A stretch of 38,583 nucleotides of DNA from an uncultured Pseudomonadota bacterium (GTDB lineage: Bacteria; SAR324; NAC60-12). Under the pieces are notes generated by a model, which did no database searches, was not told the DNA's origin, and saw only the letters and a program-made list of their open reading frames with translations. Both the position numbers and the translations under genes were made by a program. Below, one piece after another: positions 28,413 to 38,489 of this stretch. Each line of letters opens with the position of its first letter. The first letter of the stretch is position 1. Location: contig CAJWCD010000013.1 of NCBI GenBank assembly GCA_913020725.1, positions 1-38,583 of the forward strand, in the 5' to 3' direction.

Positions 28413-29477
28413 TCAGCGCAATTCAAGCAAACGTCTGACAATCTGCTCCGGGTTAAGCACTTCATCAACAGCTCCGCTTTCGACTGCCACTCGCGGCATT
28501 CCATAAACCACACAGGAGTCTTCGTCTTGTGCCATCGTGTGGGCTCCAGAGTCGTGCATTTCGGCCATCCCTTTGGCCCCGTCATTGCCCATTCCTGTCA
28601 GGATGACACCTATGGCTGCGGATCCTGCCATCGATGCCACCGAACGGAAAAGCACATCCACTGCGGGACGATGGCGGTTCACGAGTTCGCCTTCGTTCAG
28701 TCGTGCCTGGTAGCCCGCAGGGTCAGCCTCCAGAATCATGTGCATGTCCCCAGGAGCAAGTAAAGCCGTTCCGGGTAACACCCGGTCCCCTGCTTCCGCT
28801 TCTTTCACGTCAATCTTGCAGACCCGGTCGAGACTCTCGGCAAAGGAACCGGTGAATGCTTTCGGCATGTGCTGCACGATGGCGATGCCGGGCATGTCTT
28901 GGGGCAGGCTGCTCAACACTTCCCGCAGAACCTCGGTGCCGCCGGTGGAAGCGCCAATCGCGATCAAGGGTTGCTGCTTTGCAAGAGGACGACTTGGTTT
29001 TTTTGGTGGGAGGACAGCGTCGGTATCGTGTCTGGGCATCGGCTCCAGAAACCGCTGACGTGGAGTTTTTAGCTTGGCCTGCGCGGCAGCCTTGACCTTG
29101 TCGGTAATCAGGATGGCCAGTTCGTTGAGACCTTCACGCACCTCGATCTTGGGTTTTTCAATGATGTCAACTGCACCAAGTTCCAAGCTGCGTAAAGCCG
29201 TCTCGGAACCCGCTTGGGTGTAGGCACTGACCATTACCACCGGCATCGGCCTAGACTTCATCAGCCTTTCCAGAAAGGTCAGACCGTCCATCTTGGGCAT
29301 CTGGACATCAAGGGTCAGCACATCCGGATTCAGTTCGGGAATCTTGCGCAGAGCGATCAGGGCATCGGGTGCGGTTCCCACCACCTCAAGCTCAGGGTCT
29401 TCGGAAAGGATGAGTTTCAAGGTCTGACGGGCGACCGCCGAATCATCAATGATGAGAACCTTGGCAGGACGGTTCAT
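28413..29477 (-). CDS. cheB: Chemotaxis REC-methylesterase
   Basis: REC domain (IIDDS, TLDVQMP); IGASTGG, VQHM, TGMGNDG catalytic motifs. Confidence 0.97.
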   Translation of the reverse strand: MNRPAKVLIIDDSAVARQTLKLILSEDPELEVVGTAPDALIALRKIPELNPDVLTLDVQMPKMDGLTFLERLMKSRPMPVVMVSAYTQAGSETALRSLELGAVDIIEKPKIEVREGLNELAILITDKVKAAAQAKLKTPRQRFLEPMPRHDTDAVLPPKKPSRPLAKQQPLIAIGASTGGTEVLREVLSSLPQDMPGIAIVQHMPKAFTGSFAESLDRVCKIDVKEAEAGDRVLPGTALLAPGDMHMILEADPAGYQARLNEGELVNRHRPAVDVLFRSVASMAGSAAIGVILTGMGNDGAKGMAEMHDSGAHTMAQDEDSCVVYGMPRVAVESGAVDEVLNPEQIVRRLLELR

Positions 29478-29496
29478 GAATGCGAGAAGCTTCGGG

Positions 29497-30027
29497 TTAC
29501 TGGGGAGTCAGTTGGGCGAGTTCCTGCTCTGAGAGCAAACGATCAGCATCCAGCAGGATCACCATATCCGCCTTGATGTTGGCCACTCCTTGGACGAACT
29601 GGGTGTCGATGTTGGTCGCAATGTCTGCGGTTCCCTGCGTTTCCTCCTCTTCTAGGTAGACCACGTCGGCAACCGAATCAACTGTCAGGCCGACCATTTT
29701 ATCTTCGACTTGGACGATGATGATGACCGTGTACTTGTCATACTCTCCGTCAGCCATACTGAACCGCAGACGCAGATCCATGATAGGTATGACAAGGCCA
29801 CGCAGGTTGATCATGCCGACAATAAAATCCGGCATTCCGGGAATGCGGGTCACAACTTCCGGATAGCTGATCAGTTCTCGGACCTTGAGGATCTTAAGTC
29901 CGTATTTTTCCTCCCCAAGTATGAAGGTGATCAGTTGGGTGCCCTCCCGATGTGTGAGTTCAAGGTCAAATTCCTCTTCTTCCTCAAGATCACTGAGGAA
30001 CCCGATGTTGTCGGAAGTGGTATCCAT
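29497..30027 (-). CDS. cheW: Chemotaxis coupling protein
   Basis: ITFILGEEKYG, GMINLRG..IPIMDLR.RF, GLTVDSV; AAGGAG before ATG 30027. Confidence 0.95.
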   Translation of the reverse strand: MDTTSDNIGFLSDLEEEEEFDLELTHREGTQLITFILGEEKYGLKILKVRELISYPEVVTRIPGMPDFIVGMINLRGLVIPIMDLRLRFSMADGEYDKYTVIIIVQVEDKMVGLTVDSVADVVYLEEEETQGTADIATNIDTQFVQGVANIKADMVILLDADRLLSEQELAQLTPQ

Positions 30028-30040
30028 AGTCACTCCTTTT

Positions 30041-32224
30041 TCAGGCAGCTAGGGTAGAGACATCCAGAATGAAGGAAACCGAGCCGTCTCCCATAATAGT
30101 TGCTCCGGCAATGCCGGGAACTTGGATGAAGTGATCCTCAAGGTTTTTGATCACCACAGGGCGTTGGTCAATGATTTCGTCCACAAGCATGCAGTGTTTT
30201 TGGCTGCCTTGCTGGATGACGATCACCAGTCCACGGCTGGGATCTTCGGTGGCACCGTCGAGTTTGAGGCGTTCATGAAGCCGAATCAAAGGAATGTATT
30301 CCCCACGAAGGTCAATCAGTTCCCCGCGACGTTTGAGCCGTTTGATCTGCTCGGGGCGGGGCCGCAGGGCTTCAAGCACCGCAAGCAGGGGCAGAATAAA
30401 GATCTGGACACCGACTCGAACGATCATCCCTTCAATGATAGCCAAGGTCAGAGGGAGTTTCAATCGTACCAGTGTTCCCTTGCCGACGTTGCTGTGTATT
30501 TCGATGTTGCCCAAGAGGGCTTCGATTTCGCGCTTGACCGAGTCCATGCCCACCCCGCGTCCGGAAACACTGGTCACTTCGGTGGTGGTGGTAAATCCGG
30601 GTTGGAAGATGAGCTGAAAGGCTTCCTGCTCCGAGAGTTGATCCCCGGCACTGACCAGTCCCTTGCGCACCCCGGCCTCCATGATCTTCTGCGGGTCCAT
30701 CCCCTTCCCGTCATCTTCAATTTCCACAATAACAAAGCCCTCCTGATGGGAGGCTCGCAGGGCGATGGTCCCGGTGGGATCTTTGCCATGCTGCTGTCTG
30801 ATTTCCGGTTCTTCAATGCCATGGTCCATGGCGTTCCGGATGAGGTGTACCAACGGACCGTGGAGTTGTTCGGTGACGGTTTTGTCGAGTTCCGTATCGG
30901 CTCCGCTGATTTCCAGTCGAATCTGCTTGTTGCTCGCAATGGCAAAATCGCGGACAAGGCGCTTCATGGGAGTGAAGATGCTGCCCACCTGCACCATGCG
31001 GACTTGGAGGATTTGATCTTGCAGTTCACGCACAGACTGCTCGTTTTCCTCGACAAATTGCAGGACCATCTCCCCGAGGTTTTCATCGATCGCGATGATT
31101 TCTTCGCTAAGACGCATCAGTCGCGACTGGTTAATCACCGTTTCTCCCACGAGGTTCTGGAGTTTGTCCAACTTATCGACGTGAACCCTGATGGACTGCA
31201 CCACCTGAGTTTCCTTCATCGGCTTGAGGGTTCCTGTGTTCTCAGGAGTGTCCTGCACCTTTGGCTCCACTGTTATGCTGGTCGTCTCCACCTCTGGTGT
31301 GCTGCGATCCGGCTCGGAAGTGACCATTTCGGTGTCCAGATCCCCCTCCCGATGGGGCGGTTCGAGGGTTGATGCGGAGTCCTCGGCCTGCCGGATCATG
31401 CGCTGGTGAGCTTCCACGACAACTCCACTGTCTTCGGGGGGTGTATCAATGGACTCAATGCTGAGGTCGTTGCCTTCCTGAAAGAAAACGAGGATGTTTT
31501 CGATTTCCGTAAGTGGAGATTCGGTGACGAGCTTGAGGCTCCACCAGAGGTATAATCGTGCCGGATCAAAGTCTTCGAGATCTGGAAGTTTTCCGGGATG
31601 AACAATGACGGCCATTTCTCCGAGTTCATCAAGCTGCCGTAGCAGCAACAGAGGATCCCCCCCTCTCTGGAACAGGTCGTGGCTGAATTTCAAAGTCAGC
31701 AGGTAAGCTTGCCGATGCTCCGCAACAGGAGACGGAGCGGGAGGTTCTGGCTTTAAATTCTCAACAGGAGATGGAGCGGGAGGCTCCGGCTCTGCATTCT
31801 CAACAGGTGCGCTGCTCGGTGCGGTCGGTTGTTTGGGAGCCGTGCTGTCAAAAGACTGAATCTGGTGCAGGGTTTCCTCCTTCAGAGCCTGATTGATCTC
31901 TCCTTCACCGCGCAGACTGCGGATGAAGGACTGGAGACAATCCAAGGATTTCAGCAACAGGGAAATGAGCTGCGGTGTGCATTCAAGCTGACCTGAGCGA
32001 ATCCGGTCCAGCATTGATTCCAGTTGATGGGTATAATTTGCAAGTTCCGTTTGTGCGACCATCCCGGCTCCACCCTTCAGGGTGTGGACATCACGGAAGA
32101 CACGCCCCACCAGTTCACGGTTCTGCGGTTCGGACTCGAGTTCCAGCAGGGCGGTTTCGAGGTCTTGGAGCAAATCTTCTGCTTCCTCAATGAACTCGTC
32201 AACGGGAAGTTGGTCGGGGGTCAT
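30041..32224 (-). CDS. cheA: Chemotaxis histidine kinase
   Basis: Hpt FRDVHTLKGG, P2-like DPLLLLRQLDELG, LQNLVGE, HLIRNAMDHGIE, DDGKG, SGRGVGMD, LPLTLAI, CheW domain; no fused REC. Confidence 0.97.
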   Translation of the reverse strand: MTPDQLPVDEFIEEAEDLLQDLETALLELESEPQNRELVGRVFRDVHTLKGGAGMVAQTELANYTHQLESMLDRIRSGQLECTPQLISLLLKSLDCLQSFIRSLRGEGEINQALKEETLHQIQSFDSTAPKQPTAPSSAPVENAEPEPPAPSPVENLKPEPPAPSPVAEHRQAYLLTLKFSHDLFQRGGDPLLLLRQLDELGEMAVIVHPGKLPDLEDFDPARLYLWWSLKLVTESPLTEIENILVFFQEGNDLSIESIDTPPEDSGVVVEAHQRMIRQAEDSASTLEPPHREGDLDTEMVTSEPDRSTPEVETTSITVEPKVQDTPENTGTLKPMKETQVVQSIRVHVDKLDKLQNLVGETVINQSRLMRLSEEIIAIDENLGEMVLQFVEENEQSVRELQDQILQVRMVQVGSIFTPMKRLVRDFAIASNKQIRLEISGADTELDKTVTEQLHGPLVHLIRNAMDHGIEEPEIRQQHGKDPTGTIALRASHQEGFVIVEIEDDGKGMDPQKIMEAGVRKGLVSAGDQLSEQEAFQLIFQPGFTTTTEVTSVSGRGVGMDSVKREIEALLGNIEIHSNVGKGTLVRLKLPLTLAIIEGMIVRVGVQIFILPLLAVLEALRPRPEQIKRLKRRGELIDLRGEYIPLIRLHERLKLDGATEDPSRGLVIVIQQGSQKHCMLVDEIIDQRPVVIKNLEDHFIQVPGIAGATIMGDGSVSFILDVSTLAA
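31723..31807. repeat. 39-bp tandem repeat (about 2.2 copies) in the cheA linker
   Basis: caacaggagacggagcgggaggttctggctttaaattct / caacaggagatggagcgggaggctccggctctgcattct / caacagg; encodes PVEN..PEPPAPS twice. Confidence 0.9.
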
Positions 32225-33627
32225 TTTTGGGTAAAGGTATAAATGCCGTCCCAATTGCGGGGCGGAGGATTCTTGAGGAACTGCCGACAGCGTTCCGCAT
32301 AGAGCGGGAAGACTGCATCCTGAGGACACCCTTGATGACAGTCCTCAAAAGCTTGCAGACCCTTTTTCCATTGGCGCTTGCGGTAGCAAGCCAAACCGTC
32401 CTCAAAAATATCAAAACTATCTTGCTTGGCTTGCTTGAGAGCCGGAGCGTCACCATTAAAAACTTCATAAATGGTCACCGGCGCCTGACGTCCTTTGACC
32501 ATCACTCGGTCCAACTCCCGTAGTAATAGGTCCTTCCTGTTTTCGAGGAGATCAAAGGTATCATTAGAAATGATCACTGGACACCCGTAATGCTTCGTCA
32601 ATCCTTCCAGTCTGGAAGCCAGATTGACGGCATCGCCAAGCACCGTGGAGTCCATGCGCTCTTCAAAACCGATCGTTCCGATGATCACGTTCCCGCTGTG
32701 AATCCCAATCCCCATCGCCACCGGGGTCAATTTTTGTTTCCGGCGTTTGACATTGAGCTTGGCCAGCATCTTCTGCATTCCCAGTGCCGCATCAATCGCG
32801 TTTCTCGCCTCTTCCGCATCGGACTGATCTGGGCTGTCGAAGACGGCCATGATTGCGTCACCAATAAACTTATCTACAAACCCGTGGTTCTCCATGATTG
32901 GTGGATTCATCTGCTTCAGGTAGCCGTTCAGGAAATCCATCAGTTCCTGAGGGGAGTAGCTTTCTGAAATCTCCGTGAAGGAGCGGATATCGGAAAACAG
33001 GATGGTGATATTGTCACTTTCTGCATGGCCGAATCTGAGATTCTCCAGTCCATCTGGCGCAATGCGCGTGAGAAACTCCTTGGGCACAAACTTTTCAAAA
33101 ACTCCCGTCAGTTTTGCAATTGCTTCGGTTTCGGCGAGGCGAATTTTTGTCTCCTTGAGATCCTCGTAAGCTTTTTTCTGAAGCACGAGGGATTTTTCTA
33201 GGTCCCGGTTCAACTGATGAGTCAAATCTTCTGCATGCTTGATACGGATTAAAACTTTGATCCGGGCCAGTAATTCATCAGGATCGAAAGGTTTTGGCAG
33301 ATAATCCTCTGCTTCAAGTTCTGCAAGTCCTTTCACCAACTGACTCATCTCGACCTGCGCCGTCAGAAACAACACGGGGATTCTCTTCCAATCCTCATCT
33401 TTTTTTAAAATCCGGATGCACTCATCCCCACTCATCTTTGGCATGTTCCGATCCAACAAAATGAGATCGGGAAATTCCTGCTGGTGGAGTTGAGAGAGCC
33501 AGTTCAGTGCTTGATGGCCATCGGCCTGCTCAATCACTTCATACTCTTCTGGCCCAGAATCTAGTATTCGGCGGACATGATTTCGGATCATCCGGGAATC
33601 ATCTACTATTAATATTTTAGAATTCAT
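32221..33627 (-). CDS. Response regulator receiver + class III adenylate/guanylate cyclase + C-terminal helical domain
   Basis: REC (IVDDS, LLDRNMP, FLTA, PKPF); cyclase (FSDIRSFT, VDKFIGDAIMAVF, GIGIHSG, STVLGDAVNLASRLE, VKGR). Confidence 0.95.
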   Translation of the reverse strand: MNSKILIVDDSRMIRNHVRRILDSGPEEYEVIEQADGHQALNWLSQLHQQEFPDLILLDRNMPKMSGDECIRILKKDEDWKRIPVLFLTAQVEMSQLVKGLAELEAEDYLPKPFDPDELLARIKVLIRIKHAEDLTHQLNRDLEKSLVLQKKAYEDLKETKIRLAETEAIAKLTGVFEKFVPKEFLTRIAPDGLENLRFGHAESDNITILFSDIRSFTEISESYSPQELMDFLNGYLKQMNPPIMENHGFVDKFIGDAIMAVFDSPDQSDAEEARNAIDAALGMQKMLAKLNVKRRKQKLTPVAMGIGIHSGNVIIGTIGFEERMDSTVLGDAVNLASRLEGLTKHYGCPVIISNDTFDLLENRKDLLLRELDRVMVKGRQAPVTIYEVFNGDAPALKQAKQDSFDIFEDGLACYRKRQWKKGLQAFEDCHQGCPQDAVFPLYAERCRQFLKNPPPRNWDGIYTFTQK

Positions 33628-33654
33628 TCATTCCACATTGAAGACGGTAATGGT

Positions 33655-34494
33655 TCATTTTTTCTTGAAAACATTATGTCGAATTTTGGTTACCCCTTCG
33701 ACTTGATGCCCTGTTTCCGTACCGCCAAAAATTAGATAACCGTCTCGGGCCAGAAATTCAACCAATTTGTCGAGAATCATCGTTCTAGTTTCATTGTTGA
33801 AATAATAAAGTACATTACGGCAAAAAATGACCTCGAATTTCGTAGCAATAGGATAACGAGAATCCAACAGATTCAGTATTCTAAATTCAACCCTTTGCTT
33901 GATGTGTTCACGAACCTGAAGCTGGCGGTTTTTATTGTTATTTTTGATGTACCGGAAGTGTTTCCCCTGAACAGGACGTGGGATGGTTTGTAATTGGTTT
34001 TCATCGTAAACTCCCTGTATTGCATAAAATAATACGTCTGTGTTGACATCAGAAGCCAGTATTTTAAATCCTTCCGGGGTTCTTGATAATAATTGGGCCA
34101 ATTGATCGGTTTCAAAAGCAAGGGTGTAGGCTTCTTCGCCCGTTGAACAGCCTACACTCCAGATACGTATTTTTTCCCGTTTTCCTGTATTGATTTGGTG
34201 GAAATATTCAGGGAGGACATTCTCCCTGAACCAATCAAACAGTGCCGGGTCTCGGTAAAATTCTGTTTTTGTAGTGGTTACTAAATTGTAAAAATACTGA
34301 AGTTCCCCCTTGTTCTTGCTGTCTTGCAGTACTTGGAAGTACTCATCGTAATCCAAACCCAGCTCGTACAACCTAGAGTTGAGGCGACCGTGCAGCAGGT
34401 ATTGCTTCCCCTTGCTCCAGTCAATGCCTAGCTGAGATTCGACAAAATCTTGATACTTTTGATACTGTATATCACTCGGTTTTTGAACCACCAT
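33655..34494 (-). CDS. cheR: Chemotaxis methyltransferase
   Basis: TTTKTEFYRD, IWSVGCSTGEEAYT, ILASDVN, IFCRNVLYYF. Confidence 0.95.
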   Translation of the reverse strand: MVVQKPSDIQYQKYQDFVESQLGIDWSKGKQYLLHGRLNSRLYELGLDYDEYFQVLQDSKNKGELQYFYNLVTTTKTEFYRDPALFDWFRENVLPEYFHQINTGKREKIRIWSVGCSTGEEAYTLAFETDQLAQLLSRTPEGFKILASDVNTDVLFYAIQGVYDENQLQTIPRPVQGKHFRYIKNNNKNRQLQVREHIKQRVEFRILNLLDSRYPIATKFEVIFCRNVLYYFNNETRTMILDKLVEFLARDGYLIFGGTETGHQVEGVTKIRHNVFKKK

Positions 34495-34562
34495 AAAAAC
34501 TAATATCTGAAGAAGCGATCAATTCCCTCAACAAAAAAACTTTCAGACTTAGGCTGTTCGGA

Positions 34563-37106
34563 TTATTTGAAGGGTGATAAATTTCTCAATTTATTGAGTG
34601 CCTTCCCTGGGTCATGATTCATCATTGCTGGATTGGATTCGGACTCTTCTGCTGAATCTCGATCATGTGTGTTTTTAGATTCAATGAGATAGGAGTCGGT
34701 TGTTGGAAGAGTTTTTGCGGCATTAGGATCAGTTTCCTCACCAACCTTGAAGCTGTTGAGTAGCTCCTCAAGGTGTTTTGTGTCTTGGGCCATACTGGAA
34801 CTGGCTCTAGCATTTTCTTCGACTAGAGTGGCATTCTCCTGAGTGATTCGCTGCATGTCAGCAATGGTTGTGTTGATCTGCCCCACACCCTCTGCCTGTT
34901 CTGTAGCTGCGACTTTGATGTTTTCCATAACTTCCGAAACTTCGAGGAATGCTTGAATGATGTCATTCAAGTTGGAGTCACTTTCATTTTTCAGATGGTT
35001 GAGTATCGATTCAATTTTAGATCTCATTTCCTGAGTACCTTTTTCTCCCTCAGTGACTAGCTGCCGACCCGTCTCGATGCTCTCAAGGGTGTTTTCAATC
35101 AAGACTCCGATTTCTTTTGAAGCTTTCGCTGAACGATGAGCCAGTTTTCTCACTTCCGTGGCGACAACAGCAAACCCCTTACCATGTTCCCCTGCGCGGG
35201 CGGCTTCAACGGATGCATTCAGTGCGAGCAAATTGGTCTGGAACGCAACGTCGTTGATCAAGGTGATGATTCCAGCAATTTTTTTCGAACTCTTCATGAT
35301 GTCTTCCATGGCATTGACGACTCTGGAATTTGTCTCCTGAAGATTTAAGAGCATTTCTTGGTTGGTTTCGATCGATTTGTTGACGGTATCTAGAAGCTGC
35401 TGGCGGCTGTTTTCCACGGATTGCTGCGCGTTTTTTGTTAGATCACTGGCGTTTTTGGCTTCTTCGGCACTGTTCTGGACAATGCTGTTGATTTCCTCCA
35501 TAGAACTTGCGGTTTCTTCCAAAGATGCACTTTGCTGATGTGTTCGTGTCGAAAGCTCTTGGTTCCCCGAAGCCATCTCTTGGGAAACTTTGTTGATATT
35601 GTGAGACCGTTTTTTGACTTGAACAATGATGTTGTTTAGTTTTTTGAGAAACAAATTATACCAGTTTGATAGATTCCCAAGCTCGTCTTGTCCAGAGACT
35701 AGGATTCTTTTTGTGAGATCCCCCTCCCCTTCAGCAATGTCTTTGGCCATCTCAACGAGATTATCAACAGGATTGGTGATTGATCTGCGGACAAGAAAAC
35801 CAAAAAAGAGACTAACTAGCACACCGATGGCTGATACAACAAGAACCACCCAGATGAATTCTTCTGCTTCACTGATTACACTTTTATTGACAAGATCAAT
35901 GTCTTTATTGACGACTGAATTGATGTCATCCAATATGTGCGACAATCCTAAATTTGTATCAGAAAAATGATTAGCTAGTAGCTCGCTTGCAATAATTACG
36001 CTTCCGGATTTTTTTGCACTTTCAAAAGTTTTCGTGAAGTTTAAATCCATCTTATTGAAGGAGTCGATGTTATCTTGGACATCGGTTTCTTTGACGATGG
36101 TAGATAGTTCTTGTTGGATTCCAGAATACTCAATAAGAATCTTGTCTAAATTGTTGAGGTTGTTTAAACCAGTTGTATTGGTTTTTTTATCTTCTTTTTT
36201 TTGTGATGAACTGACCATCTCGTCCAATTTTTCTATCAGTAACGTCAGGCGATGATATAGATTTTTATTCAATAAACCATCTTCAGGATTTTCTTCGCCG
36301 CCCATCATTTTTGCCATAAATTCCTCATACGCCGGCTTTCCTGCGATGAGTCCTCGTTTGGACCTGATGCGGAAGATGATTCTTTTGCGCTGCCCTTTGA
36401 ATTCGTTAAAGGCATTGATTAAAATGGATATATTTTTTTTGGATTGTGGTGTTGATTCTAATTTTTCTAGAGAATTTATTGCGATTTTTTTTGTAAGCAC
36501 ATTTAGTCTATTTATATCTGTATTTATCAAGCTCAAATCTGAAGAAATTATGGTTTTTAGTCTTGAATTCCCTAAGGTTGTTTTTAGATTTTCAAGTTCA
36601 AATTCTTTTATGTTTCTAGTGATCATAAAATTGTAAACAAAATCTTGATTTTTGTGTTTTTCTTTGAAGGCATTCCAGTTATTTTTATTAGTGTCACCTG
36701 AAATATTTGAATCAAATTCATCTAACTGGTCCCCTCTTAAAGAGTATCGGTGTGAGCTTGTCACCTCACTTTGGTTGATTGAGTTGTTATTTTCTGTTTT
36801 TAATTTTGTTAGCGATTCTTCAATTCGACCAATCGAATCTTTAATGACTTGGATGCCGTTTTTAGCAGATTCCTCGGTTACATTCAAATAAAATGACTGC
36901 GCGTAGCCTTTGAGCTTGGCTTGTTCAATTCTGATTAAATCCAAATTTATTTTGTAGGTGGATAAAACCTCAGAGCTGTAATGCAGGGTCTTTGACAGGT
37001 CTAAAAATGAATTAATCACTAATCCGGAAATGGTGATAGTAATGATGGAATTGATTAAGAAGATAAAAAATATCTTCCTGCTGATTGTAATAGACAGTAA
37101 TTTCAT
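34563..37106 (-). CDS. Methyl-accepting chemotaxis protein (2 TM, large periplasmic domain, HAMP)
   Basis: TM1, TM2, HAMP ([14 protein letters not shown]), [36 protein letters not shown], methylation tracts [15 protein letters not shown] and [12 protein letters not shown]. Confidence 0.96.
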
Positions 37107-37117
37107 TTTACTTTCTC

Positions 37118-37423
37118 TTATGAGATCGGTTGAACAGGATCAAGAAAATGCTGTTCCAGTCCTACAAGATTAAGAAGATCAAGAAGATTTTCTTTCAAAT
37201 GAACGAACTCTAGGTTTTTATTATTTTTTAGAAGATTTCGTTTTAAGCACAAAAAATACTGTAACACCGCAGTGTCCAATGAGGTCACTTCTTGCATATC
37301 AAACTGGAGATGCGTGCCGAGTGAGTCAAGTTCAGATTCAAGTACCTCTTTGATCTCAGTAATGTTTTCTAGGGAGAGCGATTCCTTGAAAAAGATTATG
37401 TTTTCATTGATGGTGTATTTCAT
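37118..37423 (-). CDS. STAS domain protein
   Basis: 101 aa; [19 protein letters not shown]...LLNLVGL STAS pattern, typical first gene of F7/F8-type che clusters. Confidence 0.85.
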
Positions 37424-37647: not shown

Positions 37648-37733
37648 GCCGGTGCGCTTTCCCTTTGGGGTGGAGTGCCCTAGGATGGGGCCGTCCGCCT
37701 AATCAACGGTTTCCTCTTCTTTGAATGCTCCGC

Positions 37734-38489
37734 ATGGTTCCTTGGTGCCGCTGGTTCGGTTTGTTGCTCGAAGACTTCTTCACCGGGACCGCCTACGGGG
37801 TGCGACTGGAGGAGGAGCTTTCGCTCAAGCGGCAGTTCCTCGACGTGCTGATCCTGCGCTGGGGGGATGGCCCGGAGCCGGAGTCGCTGCCCGACGGTCT
37901 AGAGGGGCTGGGCGAGCACAACCTCGTCACCTCAAGTCCTCGGCAGAATCCCTGGACTCGTGGGCGCTGGACGAGTTGTTCGGGCACTACGTCAACTACC
38001 ACAAGCAACTCCGGGAGCAGAACGTTGATGCCCTGGAGTCAGCGTTCCGGTTCTACGCGGTCAGCCCCACCACCCGCGCAGCCTGTTCCAACAGGTGACG
38101 GCGGAATAAAAAAGCGCGGGTGCGTTCGACATTCTTTGAGGCACGCACCGGGTGCGGCTGGTCGTGCTGCGCGACATCCCGGACGCCCGCACAACGTGCC
38201 GTGGCAGATCTTCAGCGACGAGTCCCGCTGCGTCGAGTCCGGGCTGCAATGCTACGACTGGCACCAGGAGGAGGCCCGGAGCCTGATCAACCAGTTCGCC
38301 CAACACTACCACTTTGAAGGAGCACTCATGGCCTCACGCTGCACGACTTTGCCCTCGACTTCACGAAGGAACACCTCCACGAACTACCCCCCGGAGGTGC
38401 TGCGCAACGCCCTGCCTCCGGAGGAACGTCTCAAGGGACTCACCCCGAAGAAATCCTCGAGGGGCTGGAAATCGAAGAGGTTGCCGTGA
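37734..38489 (+). pseudogene. Degraded Rpn-like/PD-(D/E)XK-type multicopy family protein
   Basis: FGLLLEDFFTG..Y.V.LE.ELSLKRQFLDVLILR, LPDGL..L.EHNLVT/KS, WALDELFGHYVNY.K, HNVPWQIFS, PEERLKGL; several frameshifts and in-frame TAA/TGA stops. Confidence 0.7.

Follow-up and report, generated by a model that had tools for sequence, protein, structure and literature searches.

What is the output of a chemosensory operon in which the gene directly before cheA encodes a receiver domain joined to a nucleotide cyclase? The question is raised by an intact seven-gene operon on the minus strand, STAS-MCP-cheR-[REC-cyclase]-cheA-cheW-cheB (REC: receiver; MCP: methyl-accepting chemotaxis protein), in an uncultured bacterium of the SAR324 lineage (contig CAJWCD010000013.1 of assembly GCA_913020725.1). 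The window analysed here, 38,583 nucleotides long, is the whole of this contig (C13) of the 3.45-Mb, 93% complete source genome, hereafter G000. Comparison with relatives indicates that phosphate probably passes from CheA to the receiver part of the neighbouring cyclase, so that receptor signals would set cyclic AMP (cAMP) instead of steering a motor. A sequence-only reading of the window had proposed such a direct route from CheA to an adenylate cyclase, as a cAMP analogue of the Wsp system on a flagellar-class F7/F8 scaffold. Its statements on gene order, coordinates, the overlap of stop and start codons and the signature residues of receiver and cyclase all hold; the proposed route is backed by conservation and by the shared history of two domains, and the F7/F8 part is not. 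The features on which the argument turns are the following.

32221..33627, minus strand: REC-cyclase gene, 468 aa, with Pfam Response_reg at residues 5-124 and Guanylate_cyc at 202-385; putative output of the system
33256..33615, minus strand: receiver domain, with D9, D10, D59 (predicted phospho-acceptor), T89 and K112; subfamily motif DRNMP
33088..33282, minus strand: linker helix, continuous over 65 residues (116-180) in the model, ending in a conserved F-x-x-F-V-P; predicted coiled coil
32473..33024, minus strand: cyclase catalytic domain, with D213 and D257 (metal), K253 and T328 (adenine), N335 and R339
30041..32224, minus strand: cheA, 727 aa, ATG at 32224; Pfam Hpt, H-kinase_dim, HATPase_c and CheW
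31448..31711, minus strand: P2-like domain of CheA, residues 172-259, with model topology beta-alpha-beta-beta-alpha-beta

In its sequence, the REC-cyclase carries all the marks of a class III adenylate cyclase, i.e. the fold, two metal-binding aspartates, the asparagine and arginine pair, and the lysine and threonine for adenine. Class III adenylate cyclases specify adenine by a lysine together with a threonine or aspartate, and we take the roles of D213, D257, K253, T328, N335 and R339 to be those described for this enzyme class. In the structural model (pLDDT 83.6) the receiver is followed by the linker helix, the class III cyclase domain and a tail that is likewise helical. Among solved structures the best match to the catalytic domain is CyaB of Pseudomonas aeruginosa (3r5g, E 3.5e-33), with positions of which K253, D257, T328, N335 and R339 align, and fold matches include the WspR structures 3bre and 3i5a. 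Among 44 full-length members of the subfamily, D9, D10, D59, T89 and K112 of the receiver and D213, K253, D257, T328 and N335 of the cyclase are invariant, and R339 is kept in 43, which bears out the claim that both domains retain their signature residues. Moreover, the distance from K112 to D213 is 101 residues in 43 of these 44 members and 94, one heptad less, in the other; such a fixed distance between receiver and cyclase fits a coiled coil whose register matters.

The sequence-only reading had proposed a search for cheA beside REC-cyclase genes and made its interpretation depend on the position being kept in relatives, and it is kept. The receiver subfamily, delimited by a score of at least 110 bits against the window receiver and including one frameshifted gene added by hand, comprises 48 distinct genes. 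In 45 of them cheA lies directly downstream, two others being cut by contig ends and one (in genome G021) a true exception; the same arrangement occurs in 0 of 17 other REC-cyclase genes. At 20 loci retrieved from among 41 related genomes, full-length homologues stand directly upstream of cheA in 15, within several gene orders (e.g. STAS-M-R-AC-A-W-B and STAS-AC-A-W-M-R-B). Metagenome loci, the best 80 of 226 matches, divide into 54 with cyclase and cheA, one with a PP2C phosphatase and cheA, 23 cut by contig ends, one frameshifted near a contig end and one lacking a receiver of the subfamily, and no stand-alone CheY was found at any of the 80. Apart from that of CheB, no receiver outside the subfamily was found in the clusters, one locus having a weak stand-alone receiver nearby on the opposite strand. 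The subfamily is present in 22 of 88 genomes of the SAR324 phylum, all within one family, and a GTDB scan (best 80 of 263 matches) adds marine Gammaproteobacteria, Magnetococcales, Alphaproteobacteria and one genome labelled Actinomycetota. No plasmid copy of the receiver-linker part was found at E 1e-20. The same receiver also occurs fused to PP2C phosphatase or HD-type domains (P0175-P0180, P0182, P0187, P0197 and L255, several from Magnetococcales), and one such receiver-PP2C gene directly precedes cheA.

Several related arrangements were noted alongside. Copies of the cyclase or of cheA in L032, L180, L206 and G056:C4 are split by stops or frameshifts, through either sequencing error or decay, and what looks like a REC-cyclase-Hpt fusion (P0181), broken at its ends, is probably a frameshift artefact and was not used. 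A second SAR324 che cluster (L126 4758-16000, L127, L128, L129 and L130; genomes G024, G015, G003, G014 and G021) carries a different REC-cyclase, whose receiver has an insert; this type was not matched by the receiver query and so lies outside the 17 controls. Here the REC-cyclase and a Cache-HAMP histidine kinase stand directly upstream of cheA-cheW-MCP-MCP-cheR-(cheD)-cheB, with a cheY and a CheX-like gene at the start in G003 and G014, and the REC-cyclase may belong to the histidine kinase.

The operon CheA, with a P1 domain bearing H47, a P2-like domain and P3-P5 but no receiver, is the sole CheA and holds the sole Hpt domain found in G000. Its P2-like domain has no Pfam match and reached only 2.3% in hhalign against E. 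coli P2; it is aligned inside a match to the P1-P2 structure 2lp4, and its topology is compatible with P2. In a quick tree of CheA cores, from which duplicates and cores of fewer than 330 aligned residues were left out, the window CheA falls in a 34-row clade (clade I; SH-aLRT 100) made up of 32 cyclase-linked and two contig-cut rows. This clade lies outside the F7 and F8 references and apart from E. coli, Comamonadaceae and Vibrio, with no sister group resolved. Eight more cyclase-linked cores fall within the F8 clade, and the receptors of their loci are of the 34H type. The references were E. coli and nine plasmid che regions, and we assigned the class labels of the latter by their gene order and the length of their receptors. 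Minor classes, F10, F13 and F16 among them, had no reference in the trees, so that clade I may belong to a minor F class.

The history of the P1 domain is the strongest indication that CheA targets the cyclase receiver; it was examined in trees of P1, core and CheR, some of them built on hand-picked subsets of 37 and 30 of 80 rows. In a P1 tree the domains of all 40 cyclase-linked CheAs, the F8-type ones included, form one clade, which has support 98/92 in a careful tree of 37 rows, and placing the F8-type cyclase-linked P1 with F8 P1 is rejected by the approximately unbiased test (p-AU 0.007). The kinase core gives the opposite picture, grouping the F8-type cyclase-linked CheAs with F8 (support 99), and a single cyclase-linked clade is rejected by CheR alone (p 0.0025) and by core and CheR together (p 0.007). 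Among held-out P1 domains, the clade-I profile outscored the F8 profile in 13 of 13, the training sets being unequal (32 and 11 sequences). This pattern is most simply explained by a joint move of the receiver-cyclase gene and its neighbouring P1 onto an F8 operon, and the graft has been retained in three named lineages. Because it is P1 that has to fit the receiver, this co-travel points to the cyclase receiver as the partner of CheA. A prediction of the P1-receiver complex, run without controls, scored 0.00 and was used neither for nor against this.

Several points weigh against phosphotransfer to the cyclase as the route taken. The kinase core alone fails to reject a single cyclase-linked clade (p-AU 0.089); the groups were named after the first trees, the P1 alignment has only 104 columns, and the core tree is a quick one. 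Physical linkage alone could also have carried P1 along with the cyclase gene. The genomes compared are 51-100% complete and related, and the counts are thus not independent. An adjacent CheA is not indispensable to the receiver, for the G021 copy lies behind a gene for a 1025-aa protein with an ATPase domain, and no cheA adjoins it. The direction of control and the effector are guesses. Finally, G000 encodes FliM, FliG, 18 flagellin hits and four MotB hits and possesses, alongside its only CheA, an intact canonical orphan CheY on contig C117. The sequence-only statement that motility genes are missing thus holds for the window, where none was found among the 30 proteins scanned, and fails for the genome; the accompanying statement that the window has no stand-alone cheY, cheD or cheC/X/Z was upheld by the same scan. 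As to the flagellar genes themselves, the 18 flagellin-family hits and three FliM-like genes are spread over contigs C3, C17, C67 and others, and most relatives have two or three FliM-like genes.

The single CheA might therefore also, or mainly, phosphorylate the C117 CheY, which would bind FliM and leave the cyclase as a second branch or a phosphate sink, a reading we consider unlikely while giving it some weight. The C117 protein retains the DD, D, T and K residues of phosphorylation and switching in CheY and has W and Y at the positions that face FliM; the N-terminus of FliM still carries LAQEEVDALL, which we take to resemble the CheY-binding peptide; and the only CheA has its P2-like domain. 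The orphan cheY is nevertheless followed by a frameshifted remnant of a cheB catalytic domain (G000:C117:9488-10455, L085), and same-genus genomes have cheR or cheR-cheD remnants at this site, which suggests decay of another che cluster; in relatives the homologue heads a different che cluster (G003 and G014), is linked to one or stands apart. Of the 22 genomes of the family whose CheA belongs to clade I (an assignment made by identity and not by tree in nine), 15 have it; it was not found in the other seven, which include G016 and G022, the two with the closest operons (genomes 87-90% complete), whereas 12 of 14 genomes without a CheA hit have it. Half of the 12 CheY sequences read are altered, among them all four from relatives whose only CheA is of clade I (D to N in G001, D to E in G023, and a changed lysine in G013 and G019). 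G000 yielded no CheZ, CheX or CheD. With CheY missing or altered in relatives that have a clade-I CheA, the lineage does not appear to have adopted it in general as its output, although cross-talk within G000 may occur. The sequence-only reading had named an orphan CheY elsewhere, as the preferred target, among the things that would overturn it: an intact CheY and the FliM peptide do exist, and the comparative data argue against CheY as the main target. A second stand-alone CheY-like receiver, at G000:C99:11146-11544, keeps DD, D and K and lacks the switch threonine.

Alternatively, the cyclase could be co-transcribed with the che genes while its receiver obtains phosphate from a different kinase or a small donor, or while the enzyme is controlled through contact with the array or the STAS protein. 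The G021 copy behind a non-CheA ATPase-domain gene would fit such a scheme, as would the related but distinct REC-cyclases that follow hybrid histidine kinases, and G000 has several histidine kinases. We judge it improbable, because it is P1, the phospho-donor, that travels with the receiver, because the same receiver recurs on a PP2C phosphatase directly before cheA, and because the clusters offer CheA no other receiver than that of CheB. Doubt about the product carries still less weight. A sequence cannot prove specificity, and close structures include a guanylyl cyclase from a cyanobacterium, 2w01; yet K253 and T328 are as expected of an adenylate cyclase and coincide in the alignment with the K and T of CyaB, and with five of the six catalytic positions invariant in the subfamily it seems very improbable that the enzyme makes cGMP or another cyclic nucleotide, or that it is an inactive scaffold.

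If CheA does phosphorylate the cyclase receiver, the receptor, CheW, CheR and CheB would provide the input and its adaptation; together with the STAS gene they make up the rest of the operon.

37118..37423, minus strand: stand-alone STAS, 101 aa; Pfam STAS_2 4.6e-11
34563..37106, minus strand: MCP, transmembrane chemoreceptor, 847 aa; Pfam HAMP and MCPsignal
33655..34494, minus strand: cheR, methyltransferase, 279 aa; Pfam CheR_N and CheR only, without TPR; motifs present
29497..30027, minus strand: cheW, 176 aa; Pfam CheW 1.5e-35
28413..29477, minus strand: cheB, methylesterase with receiver, 354 aa; Pfam and NCBIfam PRK00742 above cut-off; catalytic motifs present

The genes are separated, in operon order, by 11, 68, 27, -4, 13 and 19 nt, the REC-cyclase stop and the cheA start overlapping as ATGA (32224-32221). 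Upstream GTG starts of cheA (32329) and cheW (30033) were passed over for the ATG codons that line up with the starts in relatives. Scans for promoters and for terminators gave about what chance predicts (10 vs 9.8 and 13 vs 10.4, respectively). Of the 22 RNA-library runs listed, 4 gave contigs that cover most of the operon genes, which is weak evidence, as contigs cannot show transcription, strand or level. By hydropathy and Pfam, the receptor consists of a transmembrane segment, a periplasmic sensor of about 385 residues, a second transmembrane segment, HAMP and the signalling domain; the sensor has been likened, as a lead only, to four-helix-bundle sensors. Clade-I loci mostly begin or end with a STAS gene.

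Receptor, CheW, CheA, CheR and CheB are thus all intact, and a second receptor of equal length is encoded on contig C53. By analogy with textbook chemotaxis, ligand would alter the autophosphorylation of CheA at H47, with adaptation by CheR and CheB. P1 would then phosphorylate D59, as the conserved adjacency and the co-travel of P1 suggest, and phosphorylation would shift the register of a dimeric coiled coil, most likely switching the cyclase on, in keeping with the fixed-length helix and the WspR-like layout. The predicted product, from K253 and T328, is cAMP.

It is tempting to speculate on where this cAMP might act. G000 encodes four other class III cyclases and five genes for cyclic-nucleotide-binding (cNMP) proteins: two MMPL transporters, a cNMP-GGDEF protein, a metallo-beta-lactamase-fold protein and a POPDC-like protein. 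A clear CRP was not found in this genome, where HTH_Crp hits are weak and lie on other genes, and a relay from cAMP to c-di-GMP or control of transporters would therefore be favoured over transcription of the CRP type; cAMP might act, for instance, on the cNMP-GGDEF diguanylate cyclase or on the two MMPL-cNMP proteins among the cNMP-binding enzymes and transporters. The cNMP-GGDEF fusion, at G000:C11:16209-17654, is a candidate cAMP-controlled diguanylate cyclase. Fusions of MMPL/RND transporters to cNMP-binding domains lie at G000:C19:19136-22846 and C16:782-4672, and another at L236 5969-9640. In G013 an MMPL-cNMP gene stands directly upstream of a degenerate cheY, and G019 and G023 have a gene of similar size there. 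Type IV pili were set aside as an output, since no PilT was found above cut-off in the genome.

The scaffold on which this module sits is, by its sequence features, neither ACF (alternative cellular function), F7 nor F8, and the sequence-only assignment to a flagellar F7/F8 class is not sustained. ACF systems are marked by the order WRW...ABO, a CheA-receiver fusion, a CheR with TPR and a 40H receptor (PMC9321776, Table S1). The window has none of these (40H being +14 vs Tar) and shares with ACF a multidomain response regulator as the regulator of the cluster. It likewise lacks the F7 marks, i.e. the grouping by CheA P3-P5, a 36H receptor, cheY before cheA and CheD, as well as the F8 marks, a 34H receptor and a CheA core in the F8 clade, which are found in the eight sister loci. 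The receptor arms measure 100/127 residues vs 78/105 in E. coli Tar, an extension of 22 residues per arm that is shared by the only other receptor of G000, on C53. Among clade-I receptors, extensions per arm relative to Tar are +22 (20 sequences, plus one of +22/+29), +33 (8), +51 (2) and +65 (2). These extensions (window 34563-35430; L155, L156, L089, L162 and L176) are symmetrical and not multiples of seven, and 11-residue repeats would fit them.

Among known systems, Wsp of Pseudomonas, an ACF system, is alike in that a chemosensory kinase feeds a receiver joined by a helical stalk to a second-messenger enzyme (the REC-GGDEF protein WspR). It differs from the present system, which has a class III cyclase as output, a CheA without receiver, a CheR without TPR, one CheW, and another gene order and receptor length. 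The Pil-Chp system of P. aeruginosa also raises cAMP through a class III cyclase, CyaB, which is activated via a separate regulator, PilG (PMC12632253); here, by contrast, the receiver is part of a soluble cyclase encoded in the operon, CheA has one Hpt, and, as noted above, no PilT was found above cut-off. With F7 and F8 the window shares a CheA with P1, P2-like and P3-P5 domains, a STAS gene near cheA and a regulator slot directly before cheA, as in the stage-1 F7 order (PMC7184735). It is unlike them in the clade of its CheA, its receptor of Tar+22 per arm and its lack of CheD and CheY, while the eight loci of the sister group are of the F8 type and carry the cyclase cassette as a graft.

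The sequence-only reading knew of no characterised system with this exact layout, and no characterised route from CheA to an adenylate cyclase was found in the literature searched, which leaves out most subscription papers. The layout is not wholly without precedent: a REC-mononucleotidyl cyclase, D8FCI6, is listed once as the response regulator of a CheR-TPR (ACF) cluster in Table S2 of PMC3447774, and is thus alike as a receiver-cyclase regulating a chemosensory cluster, but is a single, unstudied, ACF-class row of that table. Multidomain regulators are almost absent from the 18 non-ACF classes according to PMC3447774, whereas here one defines a non-ACF lineage, and no cyclase is listed for any of the 19 classes in Table S1 of PMC9321776. 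The operon represents a conserved chemosensory system outside ACF that has a receiver-adenylate cyclase in the place of CheY; it would be Wsp-like in its working and is possibly a new class. The fuller proposal, of an unrecognised class beyond the 19 described, dedicated to cAMP, with its own CheA and CheR lineage, non-heptad receptors and a portable cassette of receiver-enzyme and P1 that was grafted onto F8 and has an exchangeable enzyme part (cyclase or PP2C), seems to us to have a little less than an even chance.

The operon in G000 was itself likely replaced by a copy from a relative of lower GC, as its composition and divergence suggest. GC content drops to 34-43% over STAS, MCP and cheR (window 33000-37423; GC at third codon positions, GC3, 0.35-0.42), the genome being at 57%, and GC3 climbs from 0.38 to 0.63 along the operon, flanking genes being at 0.69-0.76; the gradient in G022 is alike. 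The amino-acid-binding protein encoded next to the operon shares 94% identity with its counterpart in the same-genus genome G001, which has a copy of the system at the corresponding site. Identity to G001 is only 26-58% for the four operon proteins that the two genomes share, whereas identity to G022, which belongs to another genus, is 38-78% for the seven operon proteins. An assembly chimera, suspected from the GC drop, was rejected: G022 and G016 share the gene order and the gradient, and RNA-library contigs span the MCP/cheR and cheR/cyclase junctions. Just upstream of the operon, an apparently frameshifted gene (37725-38489, plus strand) has a 72% copy on contig C35, and its first 65 residues resemble PD-(D/E)XK or transposase_31-like proteins.

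With 22 of the 88 SAR324-phylum genomes, magnetotactic cocci and metagenomes, these operons form a lineage with a multidomain output outside ACF, and they offer a small, soluble and directly testable module predicted to turn chemoreceptor signals, with adaptation, into cAMP. Mixing of parts between classes is rare according to PMC9239204; the cyclase cassette on F8 would be a natural case of it, and the joint graft of P1 and receiver points to residues that set specificity, the candidate positions in P1 being His+14 (L), +17 (Y), +41 (S) and +53 (F). For the SAR324 lineages that have flagella genes but a decaying CheY, such a system may explain what role their chemoreceptors play.

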